Source: an uncultured Bacilli bacterium (GTDB lineage: Bacteria; Bacillota_I; Bacilli_A; RF39; UBA660). Taken from it: a stretch of DNA of 64,000 nucleotides. Position numbers and translations under genes: made by a program. This document shows positions 1,307 through 63,433 of this stretch, piece by piece (position 1 is the first letter of the stretch; the number at the start of each line of letters is the position of its first letter). The notes beneath the pieces were generated by a model. It had not been told where the DNA came from, did not search any database, and was given only the letters and a program-made list of their open reading frames with translations. The DNA lies in the NCBI GenBank assembly GCA_934095845.1, contig CAKOKS010000001.1:89060-153059 (forward strand), written 5' to 3'.

Positions 1307-2002
1307 ATGGATTTTGAAAATATTGGAAAATTGATAAAAGAATTAAGAATAAAAAATAATATGACTCAAAAAGAATTTGCAGAAAAATATAATGTTACAT
1401 TTCAAGCAGTTTCTAAATGGGAAAATGGTATAAATATTCCAGATGTTTCTTTACTTAAACAAATAAGTAGAGATTTTAATATTAGTTTAGATGAACTTTA
1501 TGAAGGTAAAATAAAATCCAAATCCAATAAAAATAAATTAATAGTTATATTAATAACAATTATAATAACTATTAGTTTAATAATTTTTGTAATTTGTCAT
1601 AAAAAAGATGATAATAAATTTAACTTTAAAACTTTATCTTCTACTTGTTCAAGTTTTACTATAAATGGAAATATTTCTTATAATAAAAGTCAATCTTCAA
1701 TTTATATTACTAATATAAATTACTGTGGAGGAGATAATAATTTAAAATATAAAAAATTTAACTGTGTTCTTTATCATAAAGAAAAAAATGAAGACAGAAT
1801 CATCAGTAGTTATGATTATGATGGAAAAGCAATTACTTTAGAAGAATTTTTAAAGAAAGTTACATTTATAAAATCGGATTTTAATAATAAATGTAATGAT
1901 TATAATAATCATAGTTTGTATTTAAAGATAGAAGTATTTTTAGATGATAATACTTCAACTTTATATAAAGTACCACTTGAATTAAATAAATGTGATAAGT
2001 AA
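1307..2002 (+). CDS. XRE-family HTH membrane protein (anti-sigma-like: N-terminal HTH, one TM, extracytoplasmic domain)
   Basis: N-terminal Cro/C1-type HTH (MTQKEFAEKYNVTFQAVSKWENG). Hydrophobic stretch LIVILITIIITISLIIFVI. The RBS AGGAG lies inside the upstream gene's end, indicating translational coupling. Confidence 0.6.
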   Translation: MDFENIGKLIKELRIKNNMTQKEFAEKYNVTFQAVSKWENGINIPDVSLLKQISRDFNISLDELYEGKIKSKSNKNKLIVILITIIITISLIIFVICHKKDDNKFNFKTLSSTCSSFTINGNISYNKSQSSIYITNINYCGGDNNLKYKKFNCVLYHKEKNEDRIISSYDYDGKAITLEEFLKKVTFIKSDFNNKCNDYNNHSLYLKIEVFLDDNTSTLYKVPLELNKCDK

Positions 2003-2091
2003 TTCTATTTATGGTCTAGTTAATTCAACTTTAAAGTTATTATAAATTTCTATTTTTAGTAGTAATATTTTTTCTAGAAAGGAAGGATATT

Positions 2092-2784
2092 ATGAAAAAG
2101 AAAATTTTATGGGGATGTGTATCTTTAGTTTTAATTGTTGTTGGAATAGTTATTGGTTATTTAATTAATACTACTAATAATAATAATCTTCAAAAGTTAC
2201 CTAAACCAGAAGTGACTGGAGGAGAAAGAGGTAAACTTGGAATAGATAAAAATATTAATGAAGAAACTATTGATAATTATCTAAATAGAAGTGATTCAGT
2301 TTATTATGATGTTAGAATGCTTAAAGATGATGCTAATTGGGAAAGTATTAATGGAGATTCATATTTAAGTGGATTTGTTAATGGATTTGAAGTTTTTCCT
2401 TATCCATTTATAGCTAATGATAGTATAAGTTCAGAACTAGAAAGTATTGTTGGTAAAGGCTATAATGGGCCATCTCTTTTTAATAACGAAGATGGTAAAT
2501 ATGTTGCTAACTATAAAGAGTCATTAGAAATACTAGAATTCTTATTTCCAAAAGATAAAAATATTTTCTTGATGTGTGGTGGCGGTGGATATGCTGGCCA
2601 AACAAAGAATTTGCTTGTTTCTCTTGGATGGGATGAAAATAAAATTTATGATGTTGGTGGATATTGGTATTATAATGGGAAAAATAATATAAATGTAAAA
2701 ACTTCTAGAAATGAAAAAACAGTATATGATTTCTGGAAAGTAAAATACCATTCAATAGATTTTAAAAGTTTAACAAAGGAATAA
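2092..2784 (+). CDS. hypothetical membrane-anchored extracytoplasmic protein
   Basis: RBS GGAAGGA. N-terminal TM/signal anchor. No recognisable domain. Confidence 0.5.
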   Translation: MKKKILWGCVSLVLIVVGIVIGYLINTTNNNNLQKLPKPEVTGGERGKLGIDKNINEETIDNYLNRSDSVYYDVRMLKDDANWESINGDSYLSGFVNGFEVFPYPFIANDSISSELESIVGKGYNGPSLFNNEDGKYVANYKESLEILEFLFPKDKNIFLMCGGGGYAGQTKNLLVSLGWDENKIYDVGGYWYYNGKNNINVKTSRNEKTVYDFWKVKYHSIDFKSLTKE

Positions 2785-2786
2785 AA

Positions 2787-3233
2787 ATGAAAAAGTTTGT
2801 TATTTTAATTATAATTTTATCAATTTTTATTGTAGGTTGTTCAGAAAAAAAGTTTTATTTAAGTGGTGAGTATTATAAAAGTGATGTACTTGAAATAAAT
2901 GACAATGATCTTGATAATTTAATTAATAATAAAAAGAGTTTTATTTTATTTGTATATAATCCCTTTTGTAACTTTAAAGTATCTTGTGAAGAGGTATTCG
3001 TTAATACTTTAAAGAATGAAAATATAACTTTACTAAAAATACCATTTAATAGTTTTAAATTATCAAGACTTTATAAAAAGGTAAAATATGGACCATCAAT
3101 TTTGATTATTAATAATGGTAAATTAGTTAAATACTTAGATGCATCTGATGATAATGATTATGATATTTATCAAGATGAAGATAAGTTTAAAGAGTGGTTA
3201 TCGCTTTACATTTATTTAAGTAAAAAGGACTAA
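2787..3233 (+). CDS. putative lipoprotein
   Basis: Lipobox ...FIVGC at the N-terminus. Tightly coupled to the upstream ORF. Confidence 0.5.
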   Translation: MKKFVILIIILSIFIVGCSEKKFYLSGEYYKSDVLEINDNDLDNLINNKKSFILFVYNPFCNFKVSCEEVFVNTLKNENITLLKIPFNSFKLSRLYKKVKYGPSILIINNGKLVKYLDASDDNDYDIYQDEDKFKEWLSLYIYLSKKD

Positions 3234-3279
3234 TAAATAAAAATCCTTATGGTATAATAATACAAGAAGGATGGTGTAT

Positions 3280-4161
3280 ATGGAAAAAACAAAAGTTTAT
3301 TTTACAAGTAAAATTACTCCAGAATCTTTAGTTGAAATTTATAAATCTTTAGGAGTAACTTTAAATGGCAATGTTGCAGTTAAACTTCATTCTGGTGAAG
3401 ATGGAAATCAAAACTATGTTAAGCCAGAATTTGTAAAAGACATTATTAACTATGTTAATGGTACTGTAGTTGAATGTAATACTGCCTATAATGGTGCTAG
3501 AAATGAAACTTCAAAGCATAAAGAATTAATGGAAAAACATGGATGGAATAAATATTTTAACGTAGACATTATGGATAGCGATGGATATGTTGAATTACCA
3601 ATAGAAAATGGAAAAGTAATAAAGAAAAATTATGTAGGAAAGTCTTTAAATAATTATGATTCTATGTTAGTGTTATCACATTTTAAAGGGCATCCAATGG
3701 GTGGATATGGTGGTGCTTTAAAACAACTTTCAATTGGAGTTGCTTCTAGTGAAGGAAAATCTTATATTCATTCAGCTGGAAAGATAATGGATCAGAATAA
3801 ACTATGGGATAATATTCCAGAACAAGATTTATTTTTAGAAAGTATGGCAGATGCTGCAAGTTCAGTTCATAATCACTTTAAAGATAATATTGCTTATATT
3901 AATATGATGGTAAATATGAGCGTTGATTGTGATTGTTGTGCAAAAGCAGAAGATCCTTGTATGAAAGATATTGGAATTTTTGCTTCCCTTGATCCAATTG
4001 CTATTGATCAAGCTTGTATAGATTTAGTAATGAAATCAAATGATCCTGGTAGAGATCATTTACTTGAAAGAATTAATTCTAGACATGGAATTCATACTAT
4101 AGAGGCTGCAAGTGAACTTGGTTTTGGTTCTAGAGAATATGAATTAATTAATATAGATTAA
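3280..4161 (+). CDS. DUF362-family protein (putative Fe-S binding)
   Basis: ATG at 3280 lies 8 nt after AAGAAGGA; the ORF-track start at 3271 is too close to the RBS. Cys cluster VDCDCC...C. Confidence 0.55.
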   Translation: MEKTKVYFTSKITPESLVEIYKSLGVTLNGNVAVKLHSGEDGNQNYVKPEFVKDIINYVNGTVVECNTAYNGARNETSKHKELMEKHGWNKYFNVDIMDSDGYVELPIENGKVIKKNYVGKSLNNYDSMLVLSHFKGHPMGGYGGALKQLSIGVASSEGKSYIHSAGKIMDQNKLWDNIPEQDLFLESMADAASSVHNHFKDNIAYINMMVNMSVDCDCCAKAEDPCMKDIGIFASLDPIAIDQACIDLVMKSNDPGRDHLLERINSRHGIHTIEAASELGFGSREYELINID

Positions 4162-4180: not shown

Positions 4181-4228
4181 TATTTTGTCTTTATTGTATA
4201 ATTATCTATAGAATAGGTGAGTGCGGAT

Positions 4229-5632
4229 ATGAAGAAAAAAATAATTTTTGGAGTAATTATGTTTGTATTAGGAGTAACAGCATCTTATGGAGCTGATTTA
4301 ATATTGGGTGAAGAGGTTAGTTTTAGTAATGGTACATCTAACTTAAAAGCAAATAATGTACAAGATGCAATAGAAGAAATATATAATAAAACAATAGACA
4401 ATTCATCATGTAAAAATGTAAGTGCACCAAAATTAGGTGAAAGCTTAGTTCCAGTAACAATAGAAAATGATGGAACAGTAAAATATGCAGATACATCAAA
4501 AAACTGGTATAACTATTGTGATAAAATATGGGCAAATGCAGTAATACTTGAAGATGGTGCAAGTTATAATGTTGGAGATACAATAAGTGAATCTGATATA
4601 CAATCATATTTTGTCTGGATACCAAAATATAAATATAAATTATGGAATACAGGAACTTCTAGCAAAGGAGTACATGAGATAGAAATAGTGTTTGATGAAA
4701 CAAATACAACGGATATAGAAGGAGTATCATGTAAAACACCAATGATAAGTGGGGAAAGTGGAAACTGTAATAATGGAGAATATATGACACATCCAGCATT
4801 TATAAGTATGAATACAAATGGATTTTGGGTAGGAAAGTTTGAAACAGGTTATAAAAGAGCAACAAGTGCGTCCGCAGCTCAAGTAAATGCAAATGATACA
4901 AGTAAAGTTATAATAAAACCAAATGTATATAGTTGGAGAAACATAAGTGTTTATAATGCGTTCCTAAATTCATATAATTATCAAAGAAATTTAGATTCAC
5001 ATTTGATGAAAAATACAGAATGGGGAGCAGTTGCATATCTTTCACATTCGTTATATGGGAAAGGGTTAGAAATAAATATCAATAATAATTCAAGTTTCAA
5101 GACTGGATATTCAGCATTACCTTCAACGAATCAACAAATATATCCAGGAACAAGTGGAGATGGAGCAACATACAACTCTTCATACAATACAGATATTGGA
5201 TATCTTGCAAGTACAAGTGGAAATATAAGTGGTGTTTATGATATGAGTGGTGGAGCTTGGGAATATGTATCTTCATATATAAGCGGAAAGTTAGGATCTA
5301 GTGGATTTAGTACAACAAATTTAGCAAATTATGATAGTAAGTATTTTGATGTTTATAATGTATCATCAGCAATTAGTACTTACCAATATAGAATTTTAGG
5401 AGATGCCACAGGAGAGATGGGACCATTTAAACAATACTTAGACGGAGACAATAACTCAAGATGGCATTCCAGTTGGTATGGCGACCATTCGGACTTTGTG
5501 GACTCTTCTTTCCCTTGGTTCAATCGAGGCGGGCATTACCCTATTGGCGTGCTTGCGGGGGCTTTCGTTTTCTCTAGGTACACTGGATGGACTAACAGCA
5601 ACGGTGGTTTCCGCCTAGTTCTAACTCCTTAA
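4229..5632 (+). CDS. secreted protein with C-terminal FGE-sulfatase (SUMF1/C-type-lectin fold)-like domain
   Basis: ATG at 4229 lies 7 nt after AGGTGAG; the ORF-track GTG at 4217 is less likely. N-terminal signal peptide MKKKIIFGVIMFVLGVTASYG. FGE-family motifs NTEWGAVAYL, VYDMSGGAWEYV, NRGGHY and a terminal GGFRLV. An extended -10 tgtataat lies at 4196-4203. Confidence 0.6.
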   Translation: MKKKIIFGVIMFVLGVTASYGADLILGEEVSFSNGTSNLKANNVQDAIEEIYNKTIDNSSCKNVSAPKLGESLVPVTIENDGTVKYADTSKNWYNYCDKIWANAVILEDGASYNVGDTISESDIQSYFVWIPKYKYKLWNTGTSSKGVHEIEIVFDETNTTDIEGVSCKTPMISGESGNCNNGEYMTHPAFISMNTNGFWVGKFETGYKRATSASAAQVNANDTSKVIIKPNVYSWRNISVYNAFLNSYNYQRNLDSHLMKNTEWGAVAYLSHSLYGKGLEININNNSSFKTGYSALPSTNQQIYPGTSGDGATYNSSYNTDIGYLASTSGNISGVYDMSGGAWEYVSSYISGKLGSSGFSTTNLANYDSKYFDVYNVSSAISTYQYRILGDATGEMGPFKQYLDGDNNSRWHSSWYGDHSDFVDSSFPWFNRGGHYPIGVLAGAFVFSRYTGWTNSNGGFRLVLTP

Positions 5633-5688
5633 GATATACAATTGTATATCTTTTTTTTGTCAAATAATATAAATATGTGCATATACTA

Positions 5689-5744
5689 TTGACAGTTGAA
5701 TAGTTATTCAACTATAATTAATTCAGTTGAACGATTATTCAACT
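5689..5744 (+). promoter_or_regulatory. cadC promoter with two ArsR/SmtB-type inverted-repeat operators
   Basis: -35 TTGACA at 5689-5694. Inverted repeat gTTGAATAgtTATTCAAc at 5695-5712 fills the spacer, followed by -10 TATAAT at 5713-5718. A second inverted repeat aGTTGAAcgattaTTCAACt lies at 5725-5744. Confidence 0.55.
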
Positions 5745-5755
5745 ATGGAGGAAAT

Positions 5756-6124
5756 ATGAAAGACATTGAAATATGTGATTGCAATGTTATACATGAAGCA
5801 ATTGTTAATCAAACAAAAGAAAAAATGCTTGATAATGATTTTATAAATGAAATATCTTTATTTTTTAAAATATTAGGAGATAATACAAGAGTTAAAATTT
5901 TATTTGCCTTAGATAATAACGAAATGTGTGTTTGTGATATAGCAAATGTTTTAAACATGACTAAATCATCTATATCACATCAATTAAGTTTCTTAAAACA
6001 AAATAACATTGTTAAATGTAATAGGGTTGGTAAAGAAGTTTATTATTCTTTAGATGATGAACATGTTAAAGAAGTATTTGAAGTTGCCATTTCACATATC
6101 AAACATAGAAAGGATAATTTATGA
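5756..6124 (+). CDS. cadC: ArsR/SmtB-family metalloregulator (CadC-like Cd/Pb/Zn sensor)
   Basis: ATG at 5756 lies 5 nt after GGAGG. N-terminal Cys pair (ICDCN) and alpha-4 CVCD metal site. Winged HTH TKSSISHQLSFLK. The stop overlaps the cadA start (ATGA). Confidence 0.8.
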   Translation: MKDIEICDCNVIHEAIVNQTKEKMLDNDFINEISLFFKILGDNTRVKILFALDNNEMCVCDIANVLNMTKSSISHQLSFLKQNNIVKCNRVGKEVYYSLDDEHVKEVFEVAISHIKHRKDNL

Positions 6125-8145
6125 AAAAATATAGATATAATATAAATAATCTTGACTGTGCTAACTGTGCTAGAGAAATAGAAGAACATATGAATTCTTT
6201 AGATGACTTTAATAATGTTGTCGTTAATTTTAGTACTTCAAAAGTTAGCTTTGAAAGTGATAAAAATTATAGCCTTAATGAGCTAAATAAGATTATTACT
6301 TCTGTAGAACCTGATGCATATTTAAGTGAAAATGAAGAAACAGAAAAAAGTGATTTTCATCTTAGTTTGCTTATTGTTGCTGTGTTAACAAGCGTTATTA
6401 CTTATACATCTAATATGCCAGATATTATAAAAACTATTTTATATATTATATGTTATATAATGCTTTTATATAAAACTACAATAAATGCCATTAATCTTTT
6501 GTTTAAAAGTCATACATTAAATGAAAATGCTTTAATAACAATTTCTTGTTTAGGTGCATTTTTTATTGGTGATGTTTTAGAAGGTGTTATGGTTATAGCA
6601 CTTTATACAGTTGGTAAAATTTTAGAAACAAAAGCTATAAATAATTCTAGAAAGTCTATTAAAGATTTGATAAATATTAAACAAAATTATGCTAATCTAC
6701 TTAAAGATGATGAAATAGTTAAAGTTGATGTAGAAAATATTAAAATTGATGATTTAATGGTTGTTAAAGTGGGAGAAAAAATACCGGTGGATGGAGTAGT
6801 TGTAGATGGAAAAAGTTTTTTAGATACATCTTCACTTACAGGTGAATCAGAATCATTATTAGTAAAACAAGGAGATAAAGTTTTATCTGGTTCTATTAAT
6901 GAAAATGATGTTTTAACTATTAAAGCAACAAATGTTTATTCAACTTCAACAGTGTTTAAAATTCTTGAACTTCTTGAAAGCGCAACTGATAAAAAAACTA
7001 AAACTGAAACAGTAGTAGCAAAAATAAGTAAAATTTATACACCAATTATTTTAATATTAGCTGTTCTTTTAGTAATGTTTTTACCACTTATAGGAATAGA
7101 ATTTTATGATGCTCTTTATAGAGGACTTACATTCTTAGTAATATCATGTCCTTGTGCAATAGCCATATCTGTTCCTTTATCTTATTTTACTGGAATAGGT
7201 TTATCTAGTAAAAATGGTATTTTAATAAAGGGTAGTAATTATTTAGATAATTTAAGTAATGCTAAAAATATTATATTTGATAAAACAGGAACAATTACTG
7301 ATGGAACTTTTAAAGTAACTGAAATAGATATTAAAGATAATAATTATACTTTAAAAAGTGTTACTGATATTTTAGTTTTAGGTGAAAGTTTTTCAACACA
7401 TCCAATTGCTAAATCTATTTTAAAATTAAATCACGGTAAAGTTGATAAAAAGAAAGTACTTAATTATAAAGAAAAAAGTGGGGCAGGAATAGAATTTGAT
7501 TATGAAGGTAAACATGTATCAATTGGTAATAAAAAATTATGTGGTTGCTCTTATATTTCAACACTACATTTAAATATAGATGGTAAACATATTGCATCAA
7601 TAAAAATAGATGATGGTATTAAAGATAATGCCGGTGAAGTTATCAAATATTTAAATAAAAAAAACATAAATACTTATATGTTTACTGGAGATAAACGTGA
7701 AGTTGCTACATTTATTGGAAAAAGTGTAGGGATTAAAAATATTGAATCAGAATTATTACCTACAGATAAATTTCATATGTATGAAAATGTATCAAAAAGT
7801 GGTATAACAATTTTTGTTGGAGATGGAATAAACGATGCTCCAGTTTTAAGAAGAGCAGATATTGGTATTTCTATGGGAAGTCTTGGATCTGATGCTGCTA
7901 TTGAAGCTAGTGATATAGTTTTAATAAGTGACGATTTAAGTAAGATTAAATCAGCTATTGAAATATCAAAATATACAAAGAAAATAATAAAAGAAAATTT
8001 AATATTCGCGTGCTTAGTTAAAGCAATAATTCTTTTATTAAGTGTTCTTGGGTTAGCAAATATGTGGTTAGCTGTATTTGCTGATACAGGAGTTACATTA
8101 CTTACAATTTTAAATACTCTTAGAATAATGAAGAAAAAATACTAA
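6121..8145 (+). CDS. cadA: heavy-metal (Cd/Zn) translocating P1B-type ATPase
   Basis: HMA domain with CANC. Signature motifs CPC, DKTGTIT and GDGINDAP. Confidence 0.9.
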   Translation: MKKYRYNINNLDCANCAREIEEHMNSLDDFNNVVVNFSTSKVSFESDKNYSLNELNKIITSVEPDAYLSENEETEKSDFHLSLLIVAVLTSVITYTSNMPDIIKTILYIICYIMLLYKTTINAINLLFKSHTLNENALITISCLGAFFIGDVLEGVMVIALYTVGKILETKAINNSRKSIKDLINIKQNYANLLKDDEIVKVDVENIKIDDLMVVKVGEKIPVDGVVVDGKSFLDTSSLTGESESLLVKQGDKVLSGSINENDVLTIKATNVYSTSTVFKILELLESATDKKTKTETVVAKISKIYTPIILILAVLLVMFLPLIGIEFYDALYRGLTFLVISCPCAIAISVPLSYFTGIGLSSKNGILIKGSNYLDNLSNAKNIIFDKTGTITDGTFKVTEIDIKDNNYTLKSVTDILVLGESFSTHPIAKSILKLNHGKVDKKKVLNYKEKSGAGIEFDYEGKHVSIGNKKLCGCSYISTLHLNIDGKHIASIKIDDGIKDNAGEVIKYLNKKNINTYMFTGDKREVATFIGKSVGIKNIESELLPTDKFHMYENVSKSGITIFVGDGINDAPVLRRADIGISMGSLGSDAAIEASDIVLISDDLSKIKSAIEISKYTKKIIKENLIFACLVKAIILLLSVLGLANMWLAVFADTGVTLLTILNTLRIMKKKY

Positions 8146-8202: not shown

Positions 8203-9108
8203 ATGCGCATTATAAGTTTTGGTAATCTTTACTGTGATTATTATATTAAAGATGGAAGTAATATATTTGTAAGTGGTGGAAAAAGCAATGCAAATATTTT
8301 AGCTAACTTAAGTAAATATTTTAAATGTGCATTTTATGGAATTAAAGGAAATGATCAAGAAGGAGAAATTTCTTTAAAAAGTTTAGAAGAAATGAATATA
8401 GAAACAAGTATTAGAACTATTAAAGAGGAAACTAAAACTCGATTTATAAATGGTAATAATTTTTCTAATATATGTCCTTATTGTAAAAAAGAATATGGTT
8501 ATGTTGGTAATAAAATGTCTTTAAATGATTTAGATGGACATATAGAAGAAGATGATTATTTTGTTATAGATAATTTAGATGATTTTACAATAAATGTTTT
8601 AAATAAATATTCTAATGAAGCATTTTTAAATTTAGAAGAAATTGATGATATAGAAACGTTTGGTTTTAAAGAACTTAGTGATATTTTAAATAAAAGATTT
8701 AATATAATTTGTTTAAATGAAGAAGTATATTATTATCTTAAAGATAAATTTTTAATAGATTCATATGATTTATATGATAGTTTTGAACCTAAAATTCTAA
8801 TCATTAATAGGTCTTTACGTGGATGTGATATTATCTATGATAATAATTTTATAAAAAAGACAATTGAAGAAAAAATAAAATATGTTGATTTAAATGGAAT
8901 AGGTGATGCTTTCTTTTCAGAATTTGTAAGAACTTTTATAGAAGAAAAAGAAACTACAGAAAAAATGATTAGTAAGGCTTTTATCAGAGCTTTAACAAGT
9001 ATAAGTGTGTGTGCTAAACATTTAGGTACTAGAGGACATTTAATTAAACCTTATAAAATAAAAAGTTATAATAAATGCATTTGTAAAGATATTGTTATAG
9101 ATAAATAA
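8203..9108 (+). CDS. PfkB-family carbohydrate-kinase-like protein (divergent)
   Basis: N-terminal GGKSNANIL resembles the PfkB GG motif. C-terminal NGIGDAF resembles the DTTGAGDAF anion hole. There is an inserted CPYC motif. Confidence 0.45.
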   Translation: MRIISFGNLYCDYYIKDGSNIFVSGGKSNANILANLSKYFKCAFYGIKGNDQEGEISLKSLEEMNIETSIRTIKEETKTRFINGNNFSNICPYCKKEYGYVGNKMSLNDLDGHIEEDDYFVIDNLDDFTINVLNKYSNEAFLNLEEIDDIETFGFKELSDILNKRFNIICLNEEVYYYLKDKFLIDSYDLYDSFEPKILIINRSLRGCDIIYDNNFIKKTIEEKIKYVDLNGIGDAFFSEFVRTFIEEKETTEKMISKAFIRALTSISVCAKHLGTRGHLIKPYKIKSYNKCICKDIVIDK

Positions 9109-9140
9109 ATAAACTTATTGTATAATATTAATACTTGGTG

Positions 9141-10694
9141 ATGTATATGATAGATTTGTTTAAATTAATTAATAAGAAAACAACATTTATGACAATATTT
9201 TTGAAAAGTTGTATTTATTTATGTTGGTACTTTTTTGCAATAGTTTTTTCGATATTTATATATGACTATTTAACTGATACTAAAATATTTTTAGTGCTTC
9301 TTTTTATAGGAATTATATATATATTTAGAAACATGCTAAAATATTTACATAATAAAGATGCTAATCAAGCACATTATAATGTAAAACATGAAATTGAAAT
9401 GTATTATTTTAAAAAGATACAAAGTAGTAAAGCATATTATAATGACTCAATATTAAAAAAATTAGATAAAGAAATACTTAATTTTTCTTATTTATTTACT
9501 AAGATAATATTTGATTTAGGAGAAGTTATTATTCCTTTTATTCTTGGTATGATAATTTTATATACCAAATTATTTGAAGTTAATTTTATTATGTCTTTAA
9601 TAAGTTTAATTTATATAAATTTATTACTTGTATTAAAGTATAAAAAAACAGATTTAAAATCTGGCGTTAATTATAATGATTTATTAAATGATTTTATATT
9701 TAAATTTGATACAATTAGAAAATTAAAAGTATTTGATTATTGTGTTAATAAGTTAGATGAAAACGAAGAAAATGACATAGTTATATTAAAAAAAGAAGCT
9801 GAAGATAATGATATTAAATTTTCAAATGGAATAATAATTTATTTTCTATTTATGTTACTAATTATATTTTTCTCAATTAAGAATAATGTAACTAAAGTTG
9901 GTTTATTAATTTTTGTTATAGTAATAATGATAAAATTACAAAATGTATTATATGATTTACCTAATACAATAAAAAGAATAATAAGTCTTAAATCAAGAAA
10001 AACGCATCTTGATAATATGTATGGAGAAAAGATATCTTTAAAAAGTGTTAAAAATTTTAAAGTTGTTACTTTAAATGAAGTAAAGGTTAATTATAAAGAT
10101 ACAAATACTTGTATAAGTATTCCATCGTTTGAACTTATAAAAGGTGACACGATTGGTATATTAGGAAAATCTGGTCAAGGTAAATCAACTGTATTAAATA
10201 TTTTAAGTGGTTTATCAAATATTAATGAAGGAAAAATATTAATTGATGGTGAAGAAAAGAGATATCCAATTGATGTCGTATATTTATCAACAAGCGTAAA
10301 AATGTTTTCTTTATCACTTCGCGATAATTTAACTTTAGGTAAAAAAATAGATGATAAAAAGGTAATTGAATTAATAAATGAAATTGGTCTTGAAGAATGG
10401 TTTAATAGTCTTGATAATGGACTTGAAACGATTATTAATGATGTAAGTGATACTGTACTTAGAAGATTAAATATTATAAGAGCAATTATTATGGATAAAG
10501 AAGTTTATTTGTTTGACGAGATTACTAGCGGATTAAATTTAGATAGTGAAAAGAAAGTTGTTTCTATGATAAAAAAATATTTTAAAGATAAAACGTTTAT
10601 TATTATTTCTGATAGACCTATTCTTAATAATATTTGTGGAAAACATTATTTTATTAAAAATCATACATTATTAGAGAAAGAATCGTTGTTATAG
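9141..10694 (+). CDS. ABC exporter, fused permease/ATP-binding protein with degenerate signature motif
   Basis: Six predicted TM helices followed by an NBD with Walker A GKSGQGKST. The LSGGQ signature is degenerate (VSDTVLRRL). The exact start is uncertain (TTG 9135, GTG 9138, ATG 9141 or ATG 9147). Confidence 0.6.
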   Translation: MYMIDLFKLINKKTTFMTIFLKSCIYLCWYFFAIVFSIFIYDYLTDTKIFLVLLFIGIIYIFRNMLKYLHNKDANQAHYNVKHEIEMYYFKKIQSSKAYYNDSILKKLDKEILNFSYLFTKIIFDLGEVIIPFILGMIILYTKLFEVNFIMSLISLIYINLLLVLKYKKTDLKSGVNYNDLLNDFIFKFDTIRKLKVFDYCVNKLDENEENDIVILKKEAEDNDIKFSNGIIIYFLFMLLIIFFSIKNNVTKVGLLIFVIVIMIKLQNVLYDLPNTIKRIISLKSRKTHLDNMYGEKISLKSVKNFKVVTLNEVKVNYKDTNTCISIPSFELIKGDTIGILGKSGQGKSTVLNILSGLSNINEGKILIDGEEKRYPIDVVYLSTSVKMFSLSLRDNLTLGKKIDDKKVIELINEIGLEEWFNSLDNGLETIINDVSDTVLRRLNIIRAIIMDKEVYLFDEITSGLNLDSEKKVVSMIKKYFKDKTFIIISDRPILNNICGKHYFIKNHTLLEKESLL

Positions 10695-31396: not shown

Positions 31397-31406
31397 GTAG
31401 TTTTTT
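31385..31406 (+). terminator. rho-independent terminator of ffh
   Basis: Hairpin ctacct-tttt-aggtag followed by a T-run. Confidence 0.55.
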
Positions 31407-31414
31407 AGTTTTAA

Positions 31415-31480
31415 AATCAGCAATTAACCGAACAAAAATCATCAATTAACCGAAAAATAATCAGCAATTAACCGAAAATC
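31415..31480. repeat. three tandem 22-bp direct repeats (aatcaKcaattaaccgaaMaaa)
   Basis: Direct reading: 31415-31436, 31437-31458 and 31459-31480 share the core caattaaccgaa. Confidence 0.6.
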
Positions 31481-31533
31481 TTTGATATTTTCAAATTAAA
31501 TGTGTATAACTAAGTTAATAAGAAGGTATTTTT

Positions 31534-31698
31534 TTGAAAAATTGCAAAAGGAAAATTCAAGATAAAATACTCGAAAAAAAGCTAAAAGGAAAAGGATACT
31601 ATATTAATCGAAGAACCAAAATGGTGTGGAAAAACTACAACAGCAGAGCAAATATTTAAAAGCGTTTTGTATATGGCAAAAAAGGATTTGAAAAATTA
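31534..31698 (+). pseudogene. frameshifted 5' remnant of an AAA-family ATPase (DUF4143-type)
   Basis: Frame 1 reads (M)KNCKRKIQDKILEKKLKGKG. After a +1 shift it reads ILIEEPKWCGKTTTAEQIFKSVLYM (Walker-A-like GKTT), then a stop. Only about 55 aa of a protein normally about 400 aa remain. Confidence 0.5.
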
Positions 31699-31811
31699 AA
31701 AGAGCTATGTGAAAAGTCACATAGTTTTAAATTGCACAAAAAATGTATCTTTTAACTTGCAAAAATCAGTGTAAAATAATTTGTAAAATCGCAAATTTTC
31801 AACAAGAAAAT

Positions 31812-31840
31812 TTGACAATCGGGGGGGGTATTATATACTA
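31812..31840 (+). promoter_or_regulatory. putative sigma-A promoter with G8 homopolymer in the spacer
   Basis: -35 TTGACA at 31812-31817. G8 at 31821-31828. Candidate -10 tatact at 31834-31839 (16-nt spacer). RBS AGAGGAG at 31856-31862, ATG at 31872. Confidence 0.45.
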
Positions 31841-31871
31841 AAAATGTAAAAAAATAGAGGAGTTGTGAACA

Positions 31872-33395
31872 ATGAAAAAGAAAGCAAGTATAGTAATAGC
31901 TGTACTATTATTGGCGGTAGGATTTGCTGCCGTATCGACAACATTGATAATAAACGGAAGTGTGAATATCGGAGAAAATACAGATGACTTTTCTGTAATC
32001 TTTACAAAGGCAACATTAGATGGAACTGATGTATATGCAAATGTAATAGATGATACAAAAAAGATAATTACATTTGAAACAAGTGATTTAAAGACTTTAA
32101 ATCAAACATCAGTATTAAATTATGAAGTAACAAATAATTCAAGTAATTATGATGCTGAAGTGCAAGTAAATTGTAAAACAAAAGAAAATACAACAGCAAA
32201 ATATACAAGTATCAAAAATGAATTAGAAGGAAATGCAACAGTTATAAAAGCAAAAGAAACATTAAATGGAACATTAACAGTAACATTAAACAAGACTGCA
32301 ACTGAGGAAGTAAGAGAAGAGTATATATGTGAACTAACATTTAATGCTGTAGAAAGAGATACAATTGCAGCAAGTGAACCAACTTTATATGATTTAATAA
32401 AGTCTAAAGCAGATACAACAACAGTAATAAATTATAAAGTGCGTTCTGGAGTAAGTGGAACAAATGGAATATATACAACTACTGCAACTAATGGAAACGT
32501 TCCAGTATATTACTATAGAGGAGATGCAGATAAAGTAAATAACAATATAATATTTAATAATATGTGTTGGAAGATAATAAGAACAACAGAAACAGGTGGA
32601 ATAAAGTTAATTTATAATGGAACACCAACAGATGGAAAATGTGAAACTCAAACAGGTGAAAACACTCAAATAGGAACAAACGTATATAATGCTATTTCAA
32701 ATGATAATACATATGTTGGGTATATGTATGGAACAGCAGGAAGTACAACGTATGAAGCAACACATGAAAACAAGAATGAATCAACAATAAAAGCGTATAT
32801 AGATAATTGGTATGGTCAAAATTTTGATGAAACTGCAACAAATAAATTAGAAGATACATTATTTTGTAATGATAGAAGTACAAAAGCATATGATGCAAAT
32901 ACAATAGGAGATACAAAAATGTCATCCTATGGAGCATTAGGATATGGCAAAAATGCAACATTTTATGGAACAGCACATCGAGCATCATATTATTCCAATA
33001 ATCCAAATCCAAGTTTAGTATGTATTCAAAATAACGATAAATTTACAGTGGATAGTAAAAATGGAAACGGAAAACTTAAATATCCGATAGGACTAATAAC
33101 ATTAGATGAAGTAGTACTTGCCGGATTTAATACAAAGTATTCCAATGCAAGTAATTATAAAGATACAACGAATTATTTGTATACAAATAAAGATTATTGG
33201 ACATTTTCTCCTGTTGAGATGGGGTATTATGGTGATGCTTATGTTTTTGTTGGTTTTGTCGATAGTACTGGTCTTGTGAGTGCTGGCTCTGTGGGCTATG
33301 CTCGTGGTGTCCGTCCTGTAGTTTCGCTTGCAGATAGCACACTTGTAAATGCTAATGGAGAAGGAACAAGTACAAATCCATATGTTGTAAAATAA
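31872..33395 (+). CDS. secreted protein with signal-anchor N-terminus and divergent FGE/DUF1566-like C-terminal domain; paralog of 4229-5632
   Basis: N-terminus MKKKASIVIAVLLLAVGFAAVS. C-terminal YPIGLITLDEVVLAG, YWTFSP and GVRPVV parallel the FGE motifs. The 3' end has a raised GC codon bias. Confidence 0.6.
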   Translation: MKKKASIVIAVLLLAVGFAAVSTTLIINGSVNIGENTDDFSVIFTKATLDGTDVYANVIDDTKKIITFETSDLKTLNQTSVLNYEVTNNSSNYDAEVQVNCKTKENTTAKYTSIKNELEGNATVIKAKETLNGTLTVTLNKTATEEVREEYICELTFNAVERDTIAASEPTLYDLIKSKADTTTVINYKVRSGVSGTNGIYTTTATNGNVPVYYYRGDADKVNNNIIFNNMCWKIIRTTETGGIKLIYNGTPTDGKCETQTGENTQIGTNVYNAISNDNTYVGYMYGTAGSTTYEATHENKNESTIKAYIDNWYGQNFDETATNKLEDTLFCNDRSTKAYDANTIGDTKMSSYGALGYGKNATFYGTAHRASYYSNNPNPSLVCIQNNDKFTVDSKNGNGKLKYPIGLITLDEVVLAGFNTKYSNASNYKDTTNYLYTNKDYWTFSPVEMGYYGDAYVFVGFVDSTGLVSAGSVGYARGVRPVVSLADSTLVNANGEGTSTNPYVVK

Positions 33396-33492: not shown

Positions 33493-33519
33493 AAAGCCAC
33501 TTTATTCGTGGCTTTTTTT
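33493..33519 (+). terminator. rho-independent terminator of the 31872 gene
   Basis: Hairpin aaagccac-tttattc-gtggcttt followed by TTTT. It overlaps the gerAB stop. Confidence 0.6.
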
Positions 33520-59163: not shown

Positions 59164-60101
59164 TGGAACGAGATTTAATAAGTATAATAGTACCTGTTTA
59201 TAATGTTCAAGAATATTTAAAAAATTGTATTAATTCAATTTTAAATCAATCTTATAAAAATATAGAAATCATTTTAGTAGATGATGGTTCAACAGATGAA
59301 AGTAGTTCAATATGTGATTTATATGTAAAAAAAGATAATAGAATTAAAGTAATTCATAAAGAAAATGGTGGTCTTTCTGACGCTAGAAACATGGGTATTA
59401 AAAGTGCTAGAGGAAAATATATTACTTTTGTTGATAGTGATGATTATTTAGATGAAAACTATGTTAAAGCATTATATATTTTAATTACGGAAAATAATTC
59501 AGATATTGCGTGTTCTAGGATGAAAAAAACTGATTCCTTGAACGATAAAATAATAAATAAAAATGAAAAGATAAATATCTATAACTCAATTGATGCAATT
59601 AAAGAAATACTTTATCAGAGAAATATTGATAATTCAGCACCGAGTAAACTTTTTAATAAAGATCTTTTTGAGAATATCCTTTTTCCAGTTGGATATGCTT
59701 TTGAAGATTTGGATACAATGTATAAATTGTTTTTACAAGCAAACAAGATAGTATCTACTACTAATAATTATTATTTATATTATCAAAGGCAAGGTAGCAT
59801 TCTTCATACTGTTAAAGATAAAACGATAAATGATCTTTTAACAATAATTGATAATATGAATAAAAATTTAATAAACTATGGTGAGTTAAAGGCTCCGTTA
59901 ATGGCAAGAACTTTAAATGCAAATTTTTATATTTATAATCATTCAACTAATAAAGATATAAAAGAAAACAGTAAAAAGTATATTATTGAGAATAGAAAAA
60001 ACGTTTTGAAAGATAGTAATATAAGTAAAAAAACAAAATATGGAATAATTATTAGTTTAGTAAGTTTTAAACTAGTAAATTTATTAGATAAAATGAGGTG
60101 A
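59163..60101 (+). CDS. family 2 glycosyltransferase
   Basis: ISIIVPVYNV...LVDDGSTDES and DSDD motifs. Confidence 0.8.
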   Translation: MERDLISIIVPVYNVQEYLKNCINSILNQSYKNIEIILVDDGSTDESSSICDLYVKKDNRIKVIHKENGGLSDARNMGIKSARGKYITFVDSDDYLDENYVKALYILITENNSDIACSRMKKTDSLNDKIINKNEKINIYNSIDAIKEILYQRNIDNSAPSKLFNKDLFENILFPVGYAFEDLDTMYKLFLQANKIVSTTNNYYLYYQRQGSILHTVKDKTINDLLTIIDNMNKNLINYGELKAPLMARTLNANFYIYNHSTNKDIKENSKKYIIENRKNVLKDSNISKKTKYGIIISLVSFKLVNLLDKMR

Positions 60102-61290: not shown

Positions 61291-62448
61291 ATGAAGATAA
61301 TGATAAATAAAAAAAGCATAATGCTAACTTTGTTTTATATTTTAATGTTATTTTCATATTTTCAATTTGATAGTTTAAATTATTTATATACATCTTTATT
61401 ACCAATATATAAAATGTTTCATTATATCAGCTTTTTTATAATTGTATTGTTATTTTTTAAAAATAAAAATATGTCTAAAATAATAATTTATGTATTAATT
61501 TATTTGTTTATTCTTTTTATATCATCAATAATTAATGGCCAACAATTTTTGCAGATATTAAATTATATGATGATGGTAATGAGCTTTTGCTTAATAACTG
61601 ATTATGGAATAAAAAATAATACAAAAGAATATTTATATGCTATTTCAATTTTTTTGAATTTTATGGTTATTATTAATTTTATAACAATTTTGTTATATCC
61701 AAATGGAATGTATATTAATTCAACTTTATATAAACAAAATTGGATATTTGGTTATAAAAATGCTCATATTTTGTATTTATTACCATGTGTTGCAGTTAAT
61801 GCAATTAGATCATTAAAGTTTAAAGGACATTTGGATTATAAATTTTATTTAATATTCTTTATTAGTTTTTTATCAATTGTAATTGTAAATAGCAGTACGG
61901 GAATAGTTGGATTATTAATTATCTTGATTTATTTAGTATTTAAGAAATTGCTTGATAAAGTTAATTTAGTAAATAGTTATTCAAGTATGGGTTTATATTT
62001 ATTAAGCTTTGTTTCTATTATGATATTAAAAATTCAAAATTTATTTAAATTTTTAATTGTTGACATATTAAAAAAAGATTTAACATTTACCGGTAGAACT
62101 TATATTTGGGATAGTGTTTTAAAAAGTATAAAAAGTCATCCTTTACTTGGATATGGTAATGTAACTTTTCAATATAACAAGTATATATTTACAACACATA
62201 ATACGATTTTAGATATTTTGTATAAGACTGGTATAGCTGGTTTTACTTTATATTTTTTGATAATATTTGAAACTTGCAAAGCTTTATATGCTTGTAAACA
62301 AAACAAAATTTCCAAATTTTTATCAATTATTTTATTGTCTTATTTTGTAATAATGTTAACTGAGGCATACACGATAAACTATTATTTCTTTATTTTAGTT
62401 ATTTGTTGTAATATAAAATATTTAAGGAGAAGTGAAGATGATGAATGA
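61291..62448 (+). CDS. O-antigen ligase/polymerase-like (Wzy/WaaL family) polytopic membrane protein
   Basis: About 10 TM helices with a periplasmic-loop pattern. The start was chosen at ATG 61291, after AGGTGG. Confidence 0.55.
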   Translation: MKIMINKKSIMLTLFYILMLFSYFQFDSLNYLYTSLLPIYKMFHYISFFIIVLLFFKNKNMSKIIIYVLIYLFILFISSIINGQQFLQILNYMMMVMSFCLITDYGIKNNTKEYLYAISIFLNFMVIINFITILLYPNGMYINSTLYKQNWIFGYKNAHILYLLPCVAVNAIRSLKFKGHLDYKFYLIFFISFLSIVIVNSSTGIVGLLIILIYLVFKKLLDKVNLVNSYSSMGLYLLSFVSIMILKIQNLFKFLIVDILKKDLTFTGRTYIWDSVLKSIKSHPLLGYGNVTFQYNKYIFTTHNTILDILYKTGIAGFTLYFLIIFETCKALYACKQNKISKFLSIILLSYFVIMLTEAYTINYYFFILVICCNIKYLRRSEDDE

Positions 62449-63433
62449 TTTAATAAGTATTGTTATACCAATTTATAATGCTTCAAAATATCTGGAAAAA
62501 TGTATTAATTCAGTTATAAATCAGACATATAAAAATTTAGAAATAATTTTGGTAAATGATGGCTCAATTGATAATTCTTTAGATATCTGCAATGATTTTA
62601 AAGATAAAGATAATAGAATTAAAGTTATAAGTAAGAAAAATGAAGGAGTATCTAAAACAAGAAATATTGGAATAGATAAATGTAAGGGAAAGTATTTAAT
62701 GTTTCTTGATAGTGATGACTATATTGATGAAATTTATGTAGAAAAGATGTATACATATTTGACTAAAAATAATTTATCGATGGTTACATCAAGTATGACA
62801 TTAGTTGATGTAAATTATAATGTTTTAAAAGTTTCTTCATATAAAGATAAAAGTGATATATTACAAGTTAAAGATATCTATAAAGATATCGTTAATACAT
62901 CTTATTTTTGCCCAATTTGGAAAAATATAATAAAAGTTTCTTTAATAAAAGATAATAGTATTTATTTTGATGATTCTTTAAAATTTGGAGAAGATTTATT
63001 ATTTTCTTTTAAAATAATTCAATCATGTGAAAAGATAGGGTATTTAAGCTTTCCAGGTTATTTTTATGTTCAAAATAATGCGAGTATTACTCATAATAAT
63101 TCTTTTGATATTGTAAAAAAATATGTTGAGGATAATAAGCATGTTTATAGTATTTTAAATGAATATATTAACGATGATGTTTTAATAACAAATAGATTGT
63201 TTTCTAAATATAATTTTGCACTTTTGAAATTGATTAAAAATTGTAAATATGGAGAATTTAAACATTATGCAACTTTATTATATAAAATTATGTTTAATAA
63301 AGATGACATTATAAAAGTTTGTGAAATAAATTATGAATCTAAATCAAATACTATATTAATGAATATCTTGGTAAAAAAACATTATTTCATTTATTATCTT
63401 GTTGCTAAAACATATTATTCAATTAAAAAGTAG
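62438..63433 (+). CDS. family 2 glycosyltransferase
   Basis: ISIVIPIYNA...LVNDGSIDNS and DSDD motifs. Confidence 0.8.
   Translation: MMNDLISIVIPIYNASKYLEKCINSVINQTYKNLEIILVNDGSIDNSLDICNDFKDKDNRIKVISKKNEGVSKTRNIGIDKCKGKYLMFLDSDDYIDEIYVEKMYTYLTKNNLSMVTSSMTLVDVNYNVLKVSSYKDKSDILQVKDIYKDIVNTSYFCPIWKNIIKVSLIKDNSIYFDDSLKFGEDLLFSFKIIQSCEKIGYLSFPGYFYVQNNASITHNNSFDIVKKYVEDNKHVYSILNEYINDDVLITNRLFSKYNFALLKLIKNCKYGEFKHYATLLYKIMFNKDDIIKVCEINYESKSNTILMNILVKKHYFIYYLVAKTYYSIKK

Follow-up and report, generated by a model that had tools for sequence, protein, structure and literature searches.

The question raised by this locus is why two genes of a very AT-rich bacterium should each end in a short GC-rich island. 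The locus is a stretch of 64,000 nucleotides (positions 89,060 to 153,059 of contig CAKOKS010000001.1, assembly GCA_934095845.1) from an uncultured Bacilli bacterium, and the whole stretch is referred to here as the window. In a preliminary description the two genes, ORF1 and ORF2, were regarded as paralogues encoding secreted proteins, the terminal modules of which had been acquired or converted from a higher-GC donor. Both genes are present as described, all motifs quoted for them were found in the translations, and both products look like secreted or surface proteins. Each of the two islands is very probably a variable region (VR) of a diversity-generating retroelement (DGR), situated at the ligand-binding tip of one of two different secreted proteins. 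The evidence for this is direct for ORF1 and indirect for ORF2. The features concerned are as follows.

4229..5632, + strand: ORF1, 467 aa; N-terminal signal/anchor sequence; weak FGE-sulfatase-like domain; member of the target-gene family of DGRs with MutS-like (MSL), bAvd and reverse transcriptase (RT) genes.
5477..5613, + strand: VR1, DGR variable region in all probability; 52.6% GC, 15% A; encodes aa 417-462 of ORF1.
31872..33395, + strand: ORF2, 507 aa; signal/anchor; immunoglobulin (Ig)-like beta-sandwich at aa 40-160; C-terminal domain with a weak DUF6273 match.
33210..33332, + strand: VR2, putative DGR variable region; aa 447-487 of ORF2; about 48% GC, 10% A.

The base composition of the window was determined in sliding windows of 150 nt, which gave an average of 24.4% GC (standard deviation 4.8%). 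The two highest peaks in the 64 kb were 5469-5618 (53%) and 33197-33346 (46%). These are the 3' ends of ORF1 and ORF2, at about twice the background as originally noted. The same two ends were also the most A-poor windows of 120 nt on the + strand: they had 12.5% and 10% A where the mean was 40% (standard deviation 6%). In ORF1 the A content was 41% in the body of the gene and 15% in 5477-5613, and in ORF2 it was 45% in the body and 10% in 33210-33330. The GC content at third codon positions (GC3) rose in ORF1 from about 0.1 to 0.5-0.57, whereas at the 3' end of ORF2 it did not exceed 0.27 and the gain in GC resided in codon positions 1 and 2 (from 0.35 to 0.65). The rare GC-ending codons that had been claimed for both genes are therefore a property of ORF1 and not of ORF2. 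At the wobble positions of VR2, counted over seven aligned rows of which six were distinct, T occurred 139 times, C 43 times, G 34 times and A three times (3/219, 1.4%).

In the established DGR model a template repeat (TR) is transcribed, a cDNA is made with misincorporation opposite the adenines of the template, and this cDNA replaces the 3' end of a target gene. When ORF1 was compared with its best 120 homologues (75-98% identical), the entropy per column was low outside aa 409-460. In this segment columns of 9-15 residue types alternated with invariant W, R, G and F, an alternation that in VR1 covers aa 418-460; 11 columns within aa 409-459 had an entropy of at least 2.5 bits. The residues K, E, Q, M and W are exactly those that mutation of an AAY codon cannot yield as long as its third base is fixed, and they accounted for 1.7% of the residues at the hypervariable columns of ORF1 against 16% elsewhere. 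Alignment of the tail DNA revealed a GC-rich nucleotide scaffold common to the window and to the metagenome loci L006, L007, L008, L009, L015 and L025. The tails that share this scaffold varied almost only where the least-changed copies have an A, in AAC or AAT codons. In other homologues, among them the positional orthologue in L005, ordinary AT-rich codons encoded the same scaffold residues.

From the aligned VRs a template-specific pattern was derived in which A is retained at the variable positions, and this was scanned over one genome per species. A pattern for the TR of VR1 (TR1) is TTCAATAGNAACACTGGANNGACTAACANNAANNANGNTTTCC. The sole match was found in L046, an uncultured Bacilli metagenome-assembled genome from Hadza gut samples. 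In an ungapped comparison of VR1 (5477-5613) with the L046 TR (3489-3625), 11 of the 32 TR adenines were changed against 3 of the 105 other bases (Fisher p = 5e-6), and one of these three is a TAC/TAT polymorphism that is present between TR-like copies as well. An exact guess of the TR had no match among viral contigs. We consider it highly probable that VR1 is DGR-derived, and it would descend from a TR of the L046/L008 type.

The L046 TR is part of a larger cassette. An ORF1 homologue (1891-3303), the product of which is 78% identical to ORF1, is followed by the TR (3489-3639), an intergenic repeat of the 3' end of this homologue, and then by a MutS_I gene (Pfam E = 1e-11), a bAvd gene (E = 3e-12, above the cut-off) and a gene for a reverse transcriptase (RVT_1, E = 2e-13) with the motifs YMDD and IGNYTSQFFAN. 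With these genes the L046 locus amounts to a complete diversity-generating retroelement, one that also carries an MSL accessory gene. The order target-TR-MSL-bAvd-RT was also observed in L008, L047-L052, L054-L056 and L058-L061, with an adjacent target of the ORF1 type every time; the complete cassette is seen in relatives and not in the 64-kb window. Eight TR/VR pairs of the related loci showed 11-16 mismatches at A and 0-2 at other bases (p 1e-5 to 1e-9). The RT proteins and TRs of L047 and L051, which come from different samples, are identical, and of the 17 differences over their first 14.9 kb 16 are within the VR. This indicates that diversification was caught between samples and that the DGR family is active in relatives.

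The cassette of these low-GC gut Bacilli, consisting of target, TR, MutS-like gene, bAvd and RT, would follow the established DGR model. Its mechanism is assumed by analogy with the Bordetella phage BPP-1 DGR (Mtd, Avd, bRT), i.e. a TR RNA, an adenine-mutagenic cDNA and replacement of the 3' VR. The TR keeps A almost solely in AAY-type codons at the positions meant to vary, so that it forms, together with all VRs copied from it, an A-poor, GC-rich patch in a 24% GC genome, from which mutagenesis removes further A. A template that avoids A in its constant scaffold, and mutagenesis that strips more of it, yield a sharp island where the coding strand has about 40% A; the wobble positions of VR2 are an especially clear case. 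Hence, the GC islands are probably the product of an adenine-avoiding TR scaffold and A-to-N mutagenesis. In the related DGR loci the TRs had 46-52% GC and 21-26% A within surroundings of 26-29% GC, and in L046, the sole locus for which gene composition was measured, the RT and Avd genes had 22% and 27% GC. Because the TRs are embedded in such loci and these genes are AT-rich, a high-GC donor organism is not indicated.

ORF2 is located chromosomally between ffh and the gerA operon. At aa 441-478 it contained 18 hypervariable columns, in each of which 11-18 residue types occurred, and invariant V, G or A columns lay between them. The residues K, E, Q, M and W amounted to 4.9% at the hypervariable columns, and a single ATG-type column supplied about half of this; the figure for other variable columns was 24%. 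The AAY footprint is thus present in both families. The positional orthologue of ORF2 in L062 has the same downstream gerA operon and 83% protein identity. Between these two genes 34/34/18% of the codon positions 1/2/3 differed in VR2, and 8/8/19% in the remainder of the gene. The window, L062, L053 and L064 agree in every nucleotide of the 3' scaffold GGTGTCCGTCCTGTAGTTTCGCTT. Judged by this footprint, VR2 is likely to be DGR-derived, with somewhat less assurance than VR1. We infer that it has a cognate TR of a type other than that of VR1. No RT-adjacent target of the ORF2 type was present among five further RT homologues that were looked up, all of which had ORF1-type targets, and no relatives of the ORF2 family were found in viral contigs.

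The two VR-bearing proteins are probably C-type-lectin-like. ORF1 matched Pfam FGE-sulfatase with 17.5 bits (E = 0.0035), which is below the gathering threshold of 23.3 bits, and seven of ten distant homologues scored 16-20 bits, all under the cut-off. Its best sequence match in the PDB was 5vf4 (E = 0.098), in PDB sequence and profile searches that were near noise; we take 5vf4 to be a DGR variable protein of Thermus aquaticus. The sole Pfam match of ORF2 was DUF6273 (21.3 bits, E = 2.6e-4, sub-threshold at a gathering value of 23.5 bits) over aa 421-487 (residues 244-310 of the fragment scanned), which include VR2. The homologue P0171 and neighbouring paralogues have precomputed hits of PF19789. 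DUF6273 was reported as a C-lectin-like domain that is diversified by DGRs in gut phages (PMC10743442). Neither ORF1 nor ORF2 had a DUF1566 match in the hidden Markov model search, and for ORF2 there was none at E <=1 for the whole protein or at E <=0.1 for the C-terminal part, nor was there an FGE match. Support for the FGE/DUF1566-type domains that had been proposed for both proteins is weak. In the AlphaFold2 model of ORF2 the confidence score (pLDDT) reached 76-90 only at aa 40-160, and a Foldseek search with this model returned generic Ig-like sandwiches only, for the N-terminal domain.

The two proteins had also been described as paralogous. BLASTP aligned ORF1 and ORF2 with E = 0.19 over the signal-peptide region only, and there is no detectable similarity in the variable domain, so that this proposal was rejected. 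The N-terminal 170 aa of ORF2, the Ig-like part, are 40% identical to a small secreted protein, the gene for which immediately precedes the DGR target of L046 and L008. In L054 a DGR target of 582 aa (5014-6762) consists of an ORF2-like Ig-like N-terminus (42% identity over 187 residues, ORF2 aa 3-181) fused to an ORF1-like body and VR. This implies that both families share modules and genomic neighbourhoods.

Beside the DGR targets, genes for signal peptidase S26 and for small secreted proteins with ORF2-like N-termini recur (L047 15513-15728, L060 1309-2445, L046 474-1891). Such neighbours hint at a dedicated surface structure, secreted or fibre-like, of which the variable proteins would be part. 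In L008 (11249-11437) and L025 (291-479) the target gene passes from a VR-like 5' part directly into the 3' part of the TR and its downstream flank, without the roughly 370 nt between VR and TR. Either VR/TR recombination has truly deleted this interval, or the two repeats were collapsed in assembly.

The way in which VR1 came to the ORF1 locus was deduced from the gene itself. Two further features are needed here.

5029..5613, + strand: recombinant 3' tract of ORF1; its closest counterparts are the target genes beside the DGRs of L008 and L046 and not the positional orthologue in L005.
5614..5632, + strand: native 3' end of ORF1, AGTTCTAACTCCTTAA; TR homology ends at 5613, and the same end is present in L005, L009 and L015.

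Synteny with the window extends over 1-5631 in L005 and covers the upstream region in L029 and L041. Sliding identity between ORF1 and L005 was 89-94% over 4229-5028 (about 93% for the 5' 800 nt) and 61-81% over 5029-5628. Against the targets of L008 and L046 the latter part of ORF1 was 81-96% identical, with 93-96% in 5129-5228 and 5329-5428 and 82-90% in the two VR bins. ORF1 is a mosaic of an orthologue-like 5' part and a last part of about 500 nt that, leaving the VR aside, is 93-96% identical to DGR-adjacent targets. The conversion suspected in the preliminary description is therefore real for ORF1, and what was called domain swapping there would be recombination between paralogues together with mutagenic retrohoming, not the horizontal acquisition of a module. 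Most likely, VR1 was brought into ORF1 when the gene recombined homologously with a DGR-adjacent paralogue, the exchanged tract being about 600 nt long; direct retrohoming in trans into ORF1 is less likely. As the converted tract is four times the length of the TR, recombination between paralogues is the simplest route. Homology with the end of the TR resembling an initiation of mutagenic homing (IMH) site was not found downstream of VR1: the 13 nt after 5613 (AGTTCTAACTCCT) differ from the segment that VR and TR of L046 share (CGTCCTTTCCG..). The 3' element missing at window 5614-5626 would be CGTCCTTTCCGTA.

Several observations weigh against a DGR origin of the two islands or against its continued operation. 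The TR with which VR1 was compared is from another assembly, and the pattern that led to it was built partly from VR1 itself. A TR and an RT with a YxDD motif are absent from the window, i.e. from the 4 kb upstream and the 58 kb downstream of ORF1, as judged by an adenine-tolerant sliding comparison and by translation in six frames; the repeat search of the window yielded chance AT-rich families only. VR1 does not have the 3' segment CTCGTCCTTTCCG that VR and TR of L046 have in common. A TR for VR2 was found neither in the window nor in the 64 fetched loci nor, with two guesses of its sequence, in viral contigs; the scans of the loci were adenine-tolerant, with the VR2s of the window, L057, L062, L064, L053 and L009 as queries, and the DGR origin of VR2 is consequently read from its footprint. 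The C-type-lectin fold is without confirmation, as the Pfam matches are sub-threshold and the AlphaFold2 models of the variable domains, made from shallow alignments, were unusable (pLDDT 34 for ORF1 and 43). Finally, signs of ongoing diversification are missing. The protein P0001 is 98% identical to ORF1 with seven residue differences, all outside VR1; P0121 is 98% identical to ORF2 with nine, all outside VR2; and ORF2 is identical on seven contigs from different samples. With the VRs unchanged in the closest relatives, VR1 and VR2 appear frozen in this lineage, and we infer that they are currently inactive.

The alternative that survives best accepts the DGR origin and holds that both VRs are live remote targets, diversified in trans by a DGR elsewhere in the genome, the apparent stasis being an effect of sampling. 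There is published precedent for remote targets, with distances to the RT of over 100 kb (PMC5758913). In metagenome ORKV01, moreover, L029, which is 95% identical to the upstream region of ORF1, co-occurs with the L046-type DGR contig L008 at a similar depth (coverage 4.6 and 4.1). This is weak evidence that the lineage still has a DGR; one is presumed in this genome. The differences between VR2 and L062, mostly at codon positions 1 and 2, would also fit a live target. On the other hand, the closest relatives have identical VRs in spite of the seven to nine substitutions elsewhere in each protein, ORF2 does not vary over its seven contigs, and VR1 is devoid of the L046-type 3' homology segment. 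Live targets are the less probable state of these two genes.

Ordinary diversifying selection and recombination in a large family of surface proteins, without any retroelement, would be a second explanation and matters most for VR2. Both families are large and multi-copy, with several paralogues on one contig, mosaicism has been demonstrated, and VR2 is still without a TR. Selection of this kind leaves unexplained why K, E, Q, M and W are nearly absent from the 18 hypervariable columns, why the wobble positions have so little A where the coding strand has about 40%, and why scaffold codons are nucleotide-invariant across species with 83% protein identity; for VR1, the TR itself has been identified. 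We regard this explanation as unlikely. That the terminal modules came from an organism of higher GC content, whether through horizontal transfer or by the swapping of domains, would accord with the doubled local GC and with the breakpoint near 5030 in ORF1, but it was rejected as highly improbable because the sequence nearest to VR1 is a TR in AT-rich DNA, accompanied in L046 by AT-rich RT, Avd and target genes, because VR1 and this TR differ adenine-specifically, because the T-rich wobble positions and low GC3 of VR2 mean that A was avoided and not that GC was gained, and because the donor of the 3' tract of ORF1 is a paralogue of the same clade (93-96% identity).

DGRs with FGE-like or DUF6273-like targets, with an MSL gene and with non-adjacent targets are already known; the host lineage in which the system occurs here is undescribed. 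FGE-type C-lectin targets, MSL accessory genes and remote targets were all described by Wu et al. (2018; PMC5758913). The DGR origin proposed for the islands can be compared with four known systems. The DGR of Treponema denticola with its TvpA-type targets (CLec1/FGE-sulfatase, category 'b', PMC5758913) resembles the present one in having its VR at the C-terminus, within an FGE-sulfatase-like domain with a terminal GFR-type motif, in being cellular and not phage-borne, in its multi-copy targets of which some are non-adjacent or remote, and in its A-to-N mismatches. It differs in that here the FGE match is sub-threshold, MSL and bAvd form the accessory set, and the host belongs to a low-GC lineage of uncultured gut Bacilli. 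The copy in the window, moreover, seems static, and neither a TR nor an RT lies within 58 kb of it. The Legionella pneumophila DGR (LdtA) shares an Avd and a small MutS-like (MutS_I) gene upstream of the RT and a surface-exposed target. Its VR is of the CLec2/DUF1566 type on a lipoprotein, whereas the RT-adjacent targets here are all FGE-like and ORF2 is without a DUF1566 match. With the DUF6273 targets of gut phages (tentaclins, Faecalibacterium prophages; PMC10743442, PMC11792537) ORF2 has in common that DUF6273 is the only Pfam match of its VR-bearing domain. Unlike these targets, ORF2 is chromosomal (ffh/gerA operon), its match is sub-threshold, and neither a TR/RT partner nor relatives on viral contigs were found. 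In contrast to the BPP-1 element, finally, no phage tail fibre is involved and an additional MSL gene is present.

The surroundings of the two genes were inspected for expression signals and other features, which are listed here.

4185..4214, + strand: promoter-like site upstream of ORF1, TTGTCT-18-TAGAAT; consensus match only.
5633..5658, + strand: AT-rich hairpin GATATAC-AATT-GTATATC followed by T8, directly past the ORF1 stop; read from the sequence.
31812..31839, + strand: promoter-like site upstream of ORF2, TTGACA-16-TATACT, with a G8 run (31821-31828) in the spacer.
33493..33515, no strand assigned: hairpin resembling a bidirectional terminator, in the interval that separates ORF2 from the convergent gene.

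ORF1 starts with an ATG at 4229, has AGGTGAG 8 nt upstream and stops at 5632; no record identical to the exact ORF1 protein was found. The hairpin that follows it is probably a terminator, which the terminator scan passed over because its stem has two G-C pairs and the scan requires three. In L005 tandem ORF1 paralogues (8820-10588) follow the ORF1 orthologue, where the window instead has ArsR and P-type ATPase genes (5696-8145), and contigs L029 and L041 end within an ORF1-type gene. This suggests expansion of the locus and repeat-driven breaks in assembly. The G8 run upstream of ORF2 is the only run of at least seven G or C in the 64 kb. It is in the same place in L001-L004 and L062/L063, and a G8 also precedes the homologue in L057; no variation in length was seen in the assemblies. 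Such a run makes a phase-variable promoter at ORF2 conceivable. The gap between ffh and ORF2 (31397-31871) is unusually long with 475 nt, without an ORF of at least 60 aa on the + strand, in an otherwise compact region. A direct repeat of 126 nt (79% identity, copies 3.3 kb apart) was noted at 59172-59297 and 62447-62572.

A more speculative extension, which we put forward as rather doubtful, is that one or two chromosomal MSL-bAvd-RT elements serve a dispersed multigene family of surface proteins that have two unrelated lectin-like tips, FGE-like and DUF6273-like, and interchangeable N-termini. Recombination would spread the mutagenised VRs to distant loci where they become fixed, and VR2 would depend on an uncatalogued TR/RT type. 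If true, variation in these bacteria would have two layers, hypermutation and the shuffling of cassettes, and ORF1 would be a captured example.

A DGR origin would explain the compositional anomaly of the two genes without horizontal transfer. In very AT-rich genomes, short A-poor and GC-rich islands at the 3' ends of genes can mark the VRs of DGRs even if the retroelement is distant or not on the contig. Two abundant, unannotated families of human-gut Bacilli, with more than 7700 homologues of ORF1 in gut metagenomes and more than 4600 of ORF2, may on the basis of their sequences be marked as hypervariable surface proteins that bind ligands. In ORF1, a cassette written by a DGR has apparently been moved by recombination and then frozen, which bears on how the diversity produced by DGRs becomes fixed.

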